Virus record (IMG/VR): IMGVR_UViG_3300032226_000230
Coordinates: 1-27,270 of that record
Source: a virus
Taxonomy: Duplodnaviria > Caudoviricetes
Length of the DNA stretch: 27,270 bases
Direction: 5' to 3' (one strand)
Shown here: positions 23,178-27,008 of the stretch, in pieces
Layout: each line of letters starts with the position of its first letter
How positions within the stretch are numbered: the stretch's first letter is position 1
Translations under genes and position numbers: made by a program
Notes under the pieces: generated by a model
The model's input: the letters and a program-made list of their open reading frames with translations, nothing else
Told to the model about the DNA's origin: nothing
The model's database searches: none

Positions 23178-23732
23178 TTATTCTTCATCACTGTAAGGAA
23201 TTGGTCTCCAACCTAGACGATTTAAATCCAATTCGATTTCTTCGGTTACCACACCTTCTGGCACATAGTCCCGGCCGTCCGGGTCCGGAGTGGGTTGATA
23301 ATGATCCAATCCAAAACCAGCTTCGTGATTACCGATGCCACTACAGTACCAATCAATGTAGTCGCCCTTTTCTTGCATGTCAGCAACGATACCACCAGCA
23401 TGGCGCCAACTGCACGACCAAGTTTGACCTTTTAACTCTTGCCAAAAATCTCTGCTTTGCCAATCCATGTTGCACATAGCGGCATACAGATTCTGAGCAT
23501 AGTTGTCTGACTCTTTAACTTTATCACAAAGTTCTTTGCTACTACGGAGATCGTACTCCATGTTGTGCTTTTGCCAAACAGGATCGTGGATCTTGTTGGC
23601 TTCATCAATCTTGATTTGATCCCACATGTCTATGTAGGCTTGACTGGGCTCTTCACCCTTTTCTTCTGCCCGTGCAATATAACCTTCCTTTTGAAAGGTG
23701 TGTCGATCTGGGCTACTTGCTACTCGTTTCAT
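23178..23732 (-). CDS. Hypothetical phage protein
   Basis: YAQNLYAAMCN, WSCSWRHAGGIVAD and GDYIDWYCSG motifs. Confidence 0.82.
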   Translation of the reverse strand: MKRVASSPDRHTFQKEGYIARAEEKGEEPSQAYIDMWDQIKIDEANKIHDPVWQKHNMEYDLRSSKELCDKVKESDNYAQNLYAAMCNMDWQSRDFWQELKGQTWSCSWRHAGGIVADMQEKGDYIDWYCSGIGNHEAGFGLDHYQPTPDPDGRDYVPEGVVTEEIELDLNRLGWRPIPYSDEE

Positions 23733-24061
23733 TTGTGAAAATTACCTTGGATACAGTGGCGCACTTCATGTCCGAGGGTGTGAAAGTTTGCAGTTAGTCC
23801 AGTTATAATTACGCATTTATCGGGCCCCGTGATACTACGTTCCCAATAACTGCAAGCATCAACGGAAAACCCAAATGGCTTGTTGCCACGGCGAATGCTT
23901 TCTTGCGAACATGCTTGTGTTACATTTTTGGCTTGTCGAAATTCAATCGTGACATTGTTGCTAGCATTTCTAGTCATGTCAAATTGTTGTTTTGGATCTT
24001 CATAGAACGCAAACACGTTGGTGCTTGCTAACATCAGTGTTGCAACTATTGCCTTCTTCAT
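23729..24061 (-). CDS. Small secreted HExxH protein
   Basis: Signal peptide MKKAIVATLMLASTNVFA; LGHEVRHC; start reassigned downstream of the RNA gene. Confidence 0.75.
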   Translation of the reverse strand: MKKAIVATLMLASTNVFAFYEDPKQQFDMTRNASNNVTIEFRQAKNVTQACSQESIRRGNKPFGFSVDACSYWERSITGPDKCVIITGLTANFHTLGHEVRHCIQGNFHK

Positions 24062-24089: not shown

Positions 24090-24200
24090 TGGTGTGGGCG
24101 GTAGGATTCGAACCTACAAAGCCACCCTAAGGGCAAGGCCCTAGCCCTCCGTTCGCTTGCGCTACTAGGAGGAGGTATACCAAGTTCCACTCACGTCCAC
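24090..24200 (-). tRNA. Atypical tRNA / tRNA-like RNA (111 nt) with a non-canonical anticodon arm; identity undetermined
   Basis: Acceptor GTGGACG/CGCCCAC plus A-CCA; T8; D-loop GGAACTTGGTA; perfect T-arm GTAGG-TTCGAAT-CCTAC; CCTCC/GGAGG stem with a 17-nt loop; variable region of about 28 nt. Confidence 0.8.
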
Positions 24201-24206
24201 AATGTA

Positions 24207-24235
24207 ATTATAAGGCCTAGACGCCGGAAAGTCAA
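24207..24235 (-). promoter_or_regulatory. sigma70-like promoter of the tRNA-like RNA
   Basis: TTGACT-N17-TATAAT-TACATT, directly followed by G1. Confidence 0.85.
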
Positions 24236-25052: not shown

Positions 25053-25655
25053 TCACATGGTGGGTCCGTTGCCACTCTTGAATCCAACGCTTCCGCCTTC
25101 AGCTTCAATACGTGCGATAACGTCTTCAAACAATATGGGCGCAAAATCAGTTTGTTCCACACATACGCAATGGTAACGAACATCGTTTTCATCGCTGTAT
25201 AAAACTTCACCAGTTCTAGCATCAACTCCGCGAGCCCGCTTCACACGATTTGCGTGAGTATGACCGTGAATGTTGACTCCAAACCGACCCATAGAATCTG
25301 AGTGTAATGGAATGTGACTTAAGATCATGCCGTTCATAACATGGTACGCACGTAATTCTCTAAAGTACTGCCTATACTCGTCATCTCTGAAGATGTCGTG
25401 GTTGCCGCGGATTAACACCTTGTCACCGTTCAAGCGGCTCATAATGCTTAATGCTTTGCGGTTGATAACAACATCGCCCAAATGATACACTTTGTCAGTG
25501 GGCTTGACCCGTTCGTTCCAAGCCTTGACCATGGCTTCATCCATTTCCTCTGCTGAGTCCCATGGACGAAGTTTTGTAACACCATCGTTACGAGTGAAGC
25601 GACATACACCAGTATGTCCAAAATGTGTGTCGCTTACTAAGAATACACTTGGCAT
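25053..25655 (-). CDS. Calcineurin-like phosphoesterase
   Basis: SDTHFGH, HLGDV, GNHD, SHIP and HGHTH motifs. Confidence 0.92.
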   Translation of the reverse strand: MPSVFLVSDTHFGHTGVCRFTRNDGVTKLRPWDSAEEMDEAMVKAWNERVKPTDKVYHLGDVVINRKALSIMSRLNGDKVLIRGNHDIFRDDEYRQYFRELRAYHVMNGMILSHIPLHSDSMGRFGVNIHGHTHANRVKRARGVDARTGEVLYSDENDVRYHCVCVEQTDFAPILFEDVIARIEAEGGSVGFKSGNGPTM

Positions 25656-25684
25656 ATTCGCCTCCTTTCATTGTTTAATATGTA

Positions 25685-25713
25685 ATTATAACATCAAAAT
25701 CTCAGTGTGTCAA
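25685..25713 (-). promoter_or_regulatory. sigma70-like early promoter
   Basis: TTGACA-N17-TATAAT-TACAT; SD AGGAGG downstream. Confidence 0.85.
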
Positions 25714-26171
25714 ACGTACCAAATTTCTGTAAAGCCTTCTTCTTCAGTTGGCTCTTCCCAATTATCAATCATGCCCTGCACAACTTCCCAGGGAACTTCT
25801 TTGCCAGGACGATTGGCCAAACGTTCTTTGAGAACATCCAGCTCAGGCGTTCGAAACACAATTGCAATGTGCTGGTAGCCTGGAAGCATATTGAATTTTC
25901 TAGCACGACTTTTCACAGTGGTACTGGTTTGATCCCAAATCACAGTGTGCCCATGCTCACGTGCAAACACAACCTGGTTAGCCATAAGCTCAACTGCTCG
26001 GGGCATATAATCGTCAAACACTTCTGTGTAAGTTGATCCGCACTCTCGAGCGTAGTCTTCCACAAACGCATCTGTACTAACCACAGTCAGTCCCAAAGTC
26101 CAAATTTGATTTTTGATCCAAGTACTCTTGCCTGCGGCAGGAACTCCAATCAGTTGATAACACTTGGGCAT
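25710..26171 (-). CDS. P-loop kinase (AAA_33 / polynucleotide-kinase-like)
   Basis: GVPAAGKST, VVSTD, IWDQTS....R and ERLANR motifs. Confidence 0.88.
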   Translation of the reverse strand: MPKCYQLIGVPAAGKSTWIKNQIWTLGLTVVSTDAFVEDYARECGSTYTEVFDDYMPRAVELMANQVVFAREHGHTVIWDQTSTTVKSRARKFNMLPGYQHIAIVFRTPELDVLKERLANRPGKEVPWEVVQGMIDNWEEPTEEEGFTEIWYV

Positions 26172-26362
26172 TACCAATTCTCCACACCTGAAATTTCAGT
26201 CTTGAACTCGCCATCCAGTCCATTGATTTTAGTATGCACTATTAGGCTTGTTACACTACCGATGGCGCCAATATTGTCCTGTATCAACTCAAAACTAGTA
26301 GCCTCTGGGAACTTGTCCATGGCCTCTAGAATTTTTACAACTTCGTCTCTACATAGATACAT
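26171..26362 (-). CDS. Hypothetical protein (63 aa)
   Basis: Coupled by TAATG overlaps on both sides. Confidence 0.7.
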   Translation of the reverse strand: MYLCRDEVVKILEAMDKFPEATSFELIQDNIGAIGSVTSLIVHTKINGLDGEFKTEISGVENW

Positions 26363-26829
26363 TAATCAATACTCCTAAATGTACGCCAATCATCGATGTT
26401 TGGCTTTTCGTCTGAGTCGTATGTCCAACCCAAGGCCTTCATCATACGATGCTTGACCAACAAGTTTGGACTACGCCAACGTCCTACATCATCAAATCCC
26501 ATCATGACTCCTAGCTCACAAACCGCACCCGACCGGCACACACCTGCATAGCAGTGAACTACCACATTCATGCGGTTAGCCAATGCGTGTTGTAGCAAGC
26601 CAACCAGCTCTGCGGCCTGCTCATGACTACACTTCATTGCTTCTTCTAGCACAGAATCCTTTTCTTCCACATCCAAAAACTCAAAGTTGTGACGTTCTTT
26701 AAATTGGTGTTTAGCTTCAGGACGCCAGCTGGCTGGATCCACAATACTAATCAACATACTATTTGGGCCAGCATCGTGATGAAACCCTGTTGGGATATCA
26801 GCAGCCGCTACGTTTTCAATCCATGGCAT
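26362..26829 (-). CDS. PTP/dual-specificity phosphatase-like protein
   Basis: VHCYAGVCRSGA (CX5R), FLD acid loop, SPN; start at MPWIENV with SD AGGAG. Confidence 0.85.
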   Translation of the reverse strand: MPWIENVAAADIPTGFHHDAGPNSMLISIVDPASWRPEAKHQFKERHNFEFLDVEEKDSVLEEAMKCSHEQAAELVGLLQHALANRMNVVVHCYAGVCRSGAVCELGVMMGFDDVGRWRSPNLLVKHRMMKALGWTYDSDEKPNIDDWRTFRSID

Positions 26830-26840
26830 AATTGCTCTCC

Positions 26841-27008
26841 TTAGTGTACTGCTTCTTTTGCGTCCACAGTGCATTCAACTACCCAATTATCAAACTGGGT
26901 AAACTTGTTTACTTCTACACCTAACCCAACTGCTTCATTCACAAAGTGCTGTAATAGCGCATTGTACAATTCGTCAGGCATGGTATCTTTATCAAACTTG
27001 ATTTTCAT
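26841..27008 (-). CDS. Hypothetical protein (55 aa)
   Basis: MKIKFDKD..., ATGA overlap with the upstream gene. Confidence 0.65.
   Translation of the reverse strand: MKIKFDKDTMPDELYNALLQHFVNEAVGLGVEVNKFTQFDNWVVECTVDAKEAVH

Follow-up and report, generated by a model that had tools for sequence, protein, structure and literature searches.

A conserved family of tRNA-shaped RNAs without an anticodon loop in large uncultured phages

The minus strand of the viral DNA analysed here (the window, all 27,270 nt of the stretch, positions 1 to 27,270 of IMG/VR record IMGVR_UViG_3300032226_000230) carries a gene that has the frame of a tRNA and a structured arm where the anticodon loop should be, and the question is what such an RNA could do for a phage. 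T5 RNA1 and T4 species 1, two other phage RNAs of this general kind, have been listed with "unknown function" for decades. An earlier note on this DNA had offered two readings, a non-decoding tRNA mimic or a tRNA of the Leu(UAG) or Tyr(GUA) type carrying a mini-intron.

The RNA, its relatives and their promoter

The sequence stands on the minus strand as the earlier note had written it, with the D-loop GG, the T-arm and the encoded CCA all there, and A73 is present as well. The acceptor stem has seven positions with the single A-C mismatch described before (A5.C68), and the near-consensus sigma70 promoter 6 nt before G1 is TTGACT-17-TATAAT, which matches 11 of the 12 consensus bases. The features are as follows:

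24090..24200 (-): whole tRNA-shaped RNA gene, 111 nt, base 1 at 24200 and CCA end at 24090
24207..24235 (-): sigma70-type promoter, -35 box at 24235-24230 and -10 box at 24212-24207, start predicted at RNA base 1
24194..24200 (-): acceptor stem, 5' strand (G1, G3, A5, G7); 99.5% of cells paired in the family, two-sided changes in 4/7 pairs
24173..24191 (-): D-arm of the tRNA-Leu type with one bulged U (A14, A15, G18G19, A20a); kept in 84/84 members where the scan left it free
24146..24172 (-): arm replacing the anticodon arm (5-bp stem, AGUA/GAA internal motif, 2-bp stem, GCAA tetraloop)
24166-24163 with 24154-24152 (-): AGUA/GAA internal motif, capped by the hairpin 24162-24155
24118..24145 (-): variable region (5-nt linker, 4 bp, 2-nt bulge, 4 bp, 3-nt loop, U47, U48)
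24101..24117 (-): T-arm with G49-C65, U50-A64 and A51-U63; predicted EF-Tu affinity -9.4 kcal/mol
24090..24100 (-): acceptor stem, 3' strand, with discriminator A73 (24093) and encoded CCA; family-wide counts are given below
23729..24061 (-): downstream gene of a 110-aa protein whose N-terminus is signal-like and whose C-terminus has an HExxH motif; the usual neighbour in one subfamily

The variable region of about 28 nt with nested helices was found as described, at 28 nt. A 17-nt segment does stand where the earlier note had placed an anticodon loop of that length, but it is better read as the AGUA/GAA motif and a 2-bp GNRA hairpin, which together lengthen the arm; the alternative UCCUAG/CUAGGG pairing did not hold up, being possible in only 3 of the 45 members that have its first half. 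Folded alone, the window RNA shows no significance (z of 0.16), and its best fold is not the cloverleaf (-35.9 vs -30.4 kcal/mol), so that the case for the RNA rests on its relatives. From an alignment of 22 window-type members, RNAalifold recovers the acceptor, the central arm with the fold of the window copy, the variable arm (two-sided changes in 6/9 pairs) and the T-arm; the D-stem, which is short and nearly invariant, was not recovered from these 22, and in a divergent subfamily it is canonical and has no bulge. Across the family, two helices of 4 bp and 3-4 bp, separated by a bulge or internal loop, make up the variable arm, which usually ends in a 3-nt loop; the linker ahead of it is 4-5 nt long and non-canonical.

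The AGUA/GAA motif, which we take to resemble the bulged-G motif, is present in 49/233 members under 14 different capping hairpins and is read as a structural module. Nine bases and the closing GGAG are common to the window arm and to E. coli 23S rRNA near nt 2650, but the arm is not taken as a true sarcin-ricin mimic, since the capping hairpin differs and the motif occurs in only those 49 members.

Four scans with patterns anchored on different parts of the RNA returned 72 loci, the best 120 of about 280, 92 loci and the best 120 of about 290, and one protein-anchored scan gave 7 further loci. The family includes at least 233 distinct sequences of 95-119 nt, leaving out L110 and L167 (5' half missing), L403 and L404 (non-members), and L326 and L488 (contig edge). 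The homologs bear out the drawn fold by covariation: in 108 members, 92.1% of cells pair in a cloverleaf-like structure, vs 83.0% after shuffling of the columns and 35-56% in the slid controls, with two-sided changes in 17/28 pairs. [quoted passage not shown] All 233 members have 7/5 acceptor/T stems and A73; CCA is encoded in 218/233, and the 15 members without an encoded CCA all retain A73. The replacement of the anticodon arm ranges from 4 bp and a tetraloop to long interrupted helices. Its end loop is 3-5 nt in 204 of 227 folds and 7 nt in three, with at least 60 different loop sequences, UUCG being the commonest.

In these giant aquatic phages, the gene is present as one copy per genome of 330-380 kb in the five genomes searched whole, at 80-124 bits vs no more than 40 for ordinary tRNAs. 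The window copy scores 120 bits against family model R1 and 85 against R2, where ordinary tRNAs reach at most 45. Relatives' contigs extend to 383 kb, and the capsid protein of one of them (G002) has ~70% identity with its counterparts in cultured jumbo phages of Proteobacteria, among them Phosso, BF, CBB and PA5oct. The RNA-bearing genomes hold 27-30 normal tRNA genes, including those for Leu, Ser and Tyr, and the family RNA therefore replaces no missing tRNA. Two neighbours of members were seen in passing: a GOLLD RNA (L297:28-488) ~1 kb upstream of a divergent member, and a 120-nt, 36.5-bit match to R2 (G008:C1:361780-361899, minus strand) ~4 kb from a true member.

Annotation tools miss or mis-call these genes. 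On the window, ARAGORN made no call, of a tmRNA or otherwise, and Rfam gave nothing at gathering level, otherwise the T-arm alone at 14 bits; a 96-nt member scores 28.4 where the gathering threshold of RF00005 is 29. ARAGORN gives some short members spurious tRNA-Pro calls, and a tRNA-Pro identity was rejected for them, since they do not agree on a triplet and their stems are better paired when read as hairpins with small loops. With mis-calls as tRNA-Pro, -Val, -Arg and -His, this gene class would distort phage tRNA counts. A blastn search with the window copy and a divergent member against 50,697 phage records gave T-arm matches only, none covering 80%, and one pattern scan of bacterial genomes, for the bulged-D-stem type only, gave 7 matches at no more than 35.8 bits, none of them a member. 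Among the ordinary tRNA genes of these phages, tRNA-Tyr(GUA) has A at position 8 and was missed by ARAGORN in two genomes (G001:C1:275655-275737 and G002:C1:276030-276112; 33 bits in Rfam). In all four tRNA arrays, ARAGORN also assigns to tRNA-Ile(UAU) a gene of 92 nt whose variable arm is long, which is unusual for Ile (L230:14787-14878, L231:10896-10987, L232:5709-5800, L233:5099-5190).

The claim of an independent promoter was borne out and could be sharpened to a likely leaderless start. The -10 box, with its -35 box, stands exactly 6 nt from base 1 in 203/232 members vs 1/338 ordinary tRNA genes of the same loci, and 5-7 nt away in 227/232 vs 7/338; base 1 is a purine in 231/232 members. 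Because the 6-nt spacing is fixed, unlike that of the control tRNA genes, transcription of the family RNA would, by standard sigma70 geometry, likely start at base 1 with no leader. No terminator was found downstream of the window RNA. What follows a family RNA is the gene of the small HExxH protein, a different gene, or a tRNA at distances down to 7-8 nt, and with no terminator and genes so close, a longer transcript would have to be cut to form the 3' end. The 110-aa HExxH protein of the window (23729-24061), which matched no family in Pfam and falls in viral-only clusters of the ESM Atlas, is probably co-transcribed with the RNA; a fixed downstream partner was rejected, since other genes or tRNAs stand there in other subfamilies. 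Also encoded in this 27-kb viral record are IF-1, ClpP, DNA ligase, SOD and UvdE, as well as calcineurin-like phosphoesterase, AAA_33 kinase and dual-specificity phosphatase genes (25053-26874, minus strand), possibly for RNA end healing; in G002, the same set stands ahead of a DUF2828 gene and the tRNA array.

Two explanations that would deny the RNA an existence of its own can be weighed on these data. That it is a 5' leader protecting or controlling the downstream transcript, never released as free RNA, would agree with its place at the predicted transcript start, 12-43 nt ahead of a start codon in many members and with no terminator; however, the downstream partners vary between several proteins and tRNA-Ser, -Arg or -Thr at 7-8 nt, and the retained A73 and CCA are relevant only to a free 3' end, which leaves this explanation a slim chance. 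A decayed tRNA gene or an assembly error, with which the insignificant single-sequence fold would agree, is hardly credible when 233 different homologs are intact, show compensatory changes, hold the promoter at a fixed distance and occur once per genome, so that the earlier argument against decay gains from the relatives.

The anticodon arm and described RNAs

A decoding tRNA was rejected, as no 5-bp stem with a 7-nt loop, U33 and a conserved anticodon is found across the family. Thirteen members pass a loose anticodon-register test, with differing triplets and 12 of them one position early. A scan of IMG/VR for the same D-arm at ordinary tRNA spacing gave 0 matches, and no group of homologs restores a common anticodon loop; of the two earlier readings, it is the non-decoding mimic that these results uphold. 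That the family RNA cannot decode and is under selection can be taken, from the comparison of its members, as close to certain.

The mini-intron reading did not survive the same comparison. A tRNA-Leu(UAG) or tRNA-Tyr(GUA) whose short intron is spliced out would be in line with the UAG and GUA triplets within the insert of the window copy, and the intron option of ARAGORN calls one member a tRNA-His with an intron. Against this, the inserts share neither length nor sequence, and the shortest members, at 95-96 nt, have a 4-bp stem and tetraloop only and leave nothing removable; the phages also retain normal Leu(UAG) and Tyr(GUA) genes, and RtcB was found in 0/5 genomes. A spliced product was looked for in 8 of 21 lake RNA runs: contigs from 7 of the 8 run through the insert without splicing, and no joint falls within the gene in any of the 8. 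These contigs also cross the promoter and the neighbouring genes and so do not prove transcription, and the peaks of RNA depth over the gene are the sum of many relatives, from which neither ends nor transcription can be read. An intron is accordingly very improbable.

Among described RNAs, class II tRNA-Leu/Tyr (RF00005) has the same 7/5 stems, D-loop type, A15-U48, A73, CCA and long variable arm. Unlike these tRNAs, the family has no 7-nt anticodon loop, is likely leaderless, and has a bulged, two-part variable arm behind the 4-5-nt linker. The closest described design is T5 RNA1 (AY543070, "tRNA-like stable RNA with unknown functions"), which stands in a tRNA array and shares the Leu-type D-arm, the over-long anticodon arm, the long variable arm and A51-U63; however, it is 144 nt long, has no A73-CCA end and lacks a leaderless promoter of its own, and it scores 23 bits on model R2, below the ordinary tRNAs of T5, so that neither sequence nor layout supports homology.

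The likeness to T4 species 1/2 or Y RNAs that had been proposed fails on layout. The T4 species (rnaC and rnaD) are also stable phage RNAs beside tRNA genes, and rnaC has a T-arm, but the rnaC gene encodes no CCA and is much extended at the 5' end, rnaD is without a T-arm, and neither reaches E 0.01 against model R2. YrlA (RF02553) and b7a-tRNA are likewise tRNA mimics without a working anticodon loop, according to the available part of 10.1101/312249. In the description given there, YrlA has a closed acceptor loop with no free CCA and adjoins Ro60, whereas the family has an open acceptor with CCA, and no RF02553 match was found at the locus in five genomes. The b7a-tRNA adjoins RtcB and a Band-7 gene (cited through the same part of 10.1101/312249); here, RtcB is in 0/5 genomes and the Band-7 gene lies 7 kb off. 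Two further candidates were rejected: allo-tRNA, which has an 8/4 or 9/3 acceptor branch (PMC5389517, as far as available) where the family is 7/5 throughout, and tmRNA, defined by G3.U70, a tag frame and a stemless D-loop, since G3.U70 is found in 8/233 members and no tmRNA was called.

In the literature searched, no description of the family was found, and it is apparently an undescribed, conserved variant of phage tRNA-like RNAs. The 8,495 unnamed IMG/VR candidates of PMC10690425 may include it without a name; three of its six supplements gave no match. The available parts of PMC12619734, on another aquatic lineage, and of PMC9693318, PMC8421152 and PMC7609411 do not mention it.

Leucine identity and possible roles

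In E. coli, the leucine identity elements are A73, A15-U48, G18G19, A20a, U55, C56, U54 and A58, and a tRNA-Leu without its anticodon arm is still charged, according to the available part of PMC9976931. All of these LeuRS determinants are present in 233/233 members, the T-loop bases among them having been imposed by every search pattern. Where the patterns left the positions free, A73 was found in 38/38, 57/57 and 100/100 members, U48 in 38/38 and 57/57, and the D-loop elements in 84/84. Going by these elements, the host LeuRS would probably charge the family RNA. Some of the leucine marks may have been inherited from tRNA-Tyr: the phage tRNA-Tyr shares U48, A73 and A3-U70 (3/3), and tRNA-Tyr and tRNA-Leu are the best-scoring ordinary tRNAs on the family model (39.9 vs 39.0 bits).

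The T-stem may point away from elongation. By the rules and parameters in the available part of PMC3239215, the predicted EF-Tu affinity is -9.4 kcal/mol in 211/233 members, where 24 tRNA-Leu genes from the same phages average -10.35, a shift of ~0.9 kcal/mol that lies below the 1.3 outlier bar of that source and equals the tRNA-Tyr level. A51-U63 is present in 38/38 members where the pattern left it free and in none of the 24 phage tRNA-Leu genes. The family RNA is thus predicted to bind EF-Tu more weakly than tRNA-Leu does. Pair 3-70 is purine-pyrimidine in 233/233 members; C3-G70, found in 16/24 phage tRNA-Leu, never occurs, G3-C70 is found in only 136/233, G3.U70 in 8/233, and A4:U69 is rare (19/233). 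The window copy has G3:C70 and C72 along with its A5.C68 mismatch. The L/F-transferase prefers G3:C70 to C3:G70 and is a poor competitor of EF-Tu for Leu-tRNA, as stated in the available part of PMC4105747. ClpS is encoded in 4/6 RNA-bearing genomes, the two without it being 80% and 93% complete, ClpP is encoded in the window, and G002 has both ClpA and ClpP. L/F-transferase was found in 0/5 genomes, and the 353 of 421 frames scanned in G002 include no synthetase, CCA enzyme or known aminoacyl transferase; with no transferase found in the phages, the user of the RNA would have to be a host enzyme.

Since leucylation is likely and EF-Tu binding is predicted to be weaker than that of tRNA-Leu, here it is proposed that the RNA would most likely act as a donor of activated leucine outside the ribosome, a reading to which we give a probability of roughly 0.4. 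Comparison of the sequences establishes that the frame exists and is conserved, that the anticodon arm varies freely, and how the promoter is spaced; the steps proposed from these points stand in order of falling support. Transcription by the host polymerase would begin with base 1, and cutting of a longer transcript, followed by trimming or completion to CCA, would give the 3' end. The RNA would then be charged by LeuRS, an enzyme that is indifferent to the anticodon in E. coli, and the A51-U63 T-stem together with the absent anticodon would hold it out of elongation. Finally, a tRNA-dependent transferase could take over the leucine, the host L/F-transferase being the simplest candidate, and the tagged proteins would go to the phage's own ClpS-ClpA-ClpP. 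The closest functional model is the non-proteinogenic tRNA-Gly of Staphylococcus, an off-ribosome donor with a T-stem that escapes EF-Tu (available parts of PMC9976931 and PMC3239215); it differs in keeping its anticodon loop and in having a known transferase, which the family phages do not show. In its full form, a leaderless, anticodon-free leucyl-tRNA that escapes EF-Tu by design and feeds a transferase to steer the tagging and destruction of host proteins via ClpS-ClpAP, the proposal is unlikely enough to be called speculative. If true, the RNA would act as a virus-encoded cofactor in the targeted destruction of proteins. It would also be the one member now in view of a broader class of RNAs with the leucine frame, which cultured jumbo and N4-like phages would contain too, either without annotation or under a wrong one.

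The main rival, which is tentative and somewhat less probable than the leucine donor, is a counter-defence decoy, an abundant and uncleavable tRNA look-alike that would bind or absorb host effectors recognising the acceptor end or elbow, such as CCA-modifying toxins, aminoacyl-tRNA acetyltransferases or body-docking tRNA nucleases. A near-consensus promoter and a likely leaderless start would yield such an RNA at once, with no need of RNase P, and the usual cut site, the anticodon loop (HepS and Schlafen; PMC13434031, as far as available), is replaced by stable small loops. Cultured phages contain comparable designs too, in some cases without CCA and with a bulge in the acceptor, which would suit binding without charging. 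However, the invariant LeuRS elements would go unexplained unless the effector were leucine-specific, and the arm varies so widely in length that anticodon-reading nucleases would find nothing fixed. The phage tRNA-Tyr that rescues from retron Ec78 required its anticodon (10.1101/2023.03.15.532788), and a decoy for anticodon nucleases is the weaker form of this rival because the anticodon loop is the very part discarded.

Two other roles fare worse. The CCA end and elbow are the surfaces used by LeuRS, RelA and EF-Tu, and their retention, together with the IF-1, peptide deformylase and MazG carried by these phages, would fit a modulator of translation that ties up one of the three off the ribosome and so shifts leucine supply or damps the stringent response; yet the T-stem is predicted to be tuned away from EF-Tu, and a LeuRS sink would starve the phage's own two or three tRNA-Leu, which makes such control improbable. 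Less probable again is an RNA partner of the phage DUF2828 protein in RNA repair, in the manner of a Y RNA or b7a-tRNA. The DUF2828 protein is presumably Ro60/TROVE-like. Proteins of that kind have been mentioned in jumbo phages (PMC7824862), DUF2828/DUF7788 is found in 4/8 RNA-bearing genomes, and the window encodes a phosphoesterase, a kinase and a phosphatase at 0.9-2.7 kb upstream. However, DUF2828 is absent from G007 (100% complete) and G009 (93%), both of which carry the RNA, RtcB is in 0/5 genomes, the locus has no YrlA match, and the arm is without a conserved helix able to bind the Ro60 ring.

The leucine-donor reading aside, hundreds of alleles show which surfaces are kept (those for the synthetase, the CCA end, a T-stem predicted to be weak for EF-Tu and a start that is likely leaderless) and that the anticodon is the one dropped. 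A natural scaffold predicted to accept leucine, with one arm free, could also serve engineering.

Look-alikes in cultured phages

Model R2 leads to RNAs of 112-113 nt in Serratia phage BF and Xanthomonas phage XbC2, and blastn from these gives 18 records covering at least 80%, including CBB, Kaldavass and N4-like Achromobacter phages, where the RNAs are annotated as nothing, tRNA-Val or tRNA-Arg (L538:1501-1612, L541:1501-1613, L554:395-507, L555:397-508, L551:1497-1607, L552:597-719, L553:549-671). PA5oct gave no match to R2. These look-alikes have a Leu-type D-loop, A51-U63 and a bulged variable arm, and their anticodon arm is a symmetric internal loop with a small capping hairpin. They score 40-45 bits, not above true tRNA-Leu, and have no encoded CCA; those in BF and XbC2 are not leaderless, and the N4-like copies have a bulged acceptor. 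Homology with the family is thus not supported by scores, promoter or CCA; being in cultured phages, these RNAs offer a bench handle.

Other tRNA-framed RNAs were also found. Salicola phage SCTP-2 and Vibrio phage 2.275.O have unannotated RNAs of 135-155 nt with expanded variable regions (L531:1575-1729; L550:2490-2624 and 2724-2859). Pedobacter/Mucilaginibacter loci contain tRNA-like elements (L310:1476-1588 and 1662-1807; L316:1473-1585 and 1746-1862; also L311 and L313-L315) with a Leu-type D-loop, a 7-nt GUC loop, pyrimidine 37, G73 and a long variable region; they stand divergent from an Lrp/AsnC-like gene, with no ARAGORN call and, in the three loci scanned, no Rfam match. Additionally, several tRNA-like and hairpin elements stand in an N4-like phage of 74 kb, within ~1.3 kb for which no protein gene is annotated (L551:400-1670).
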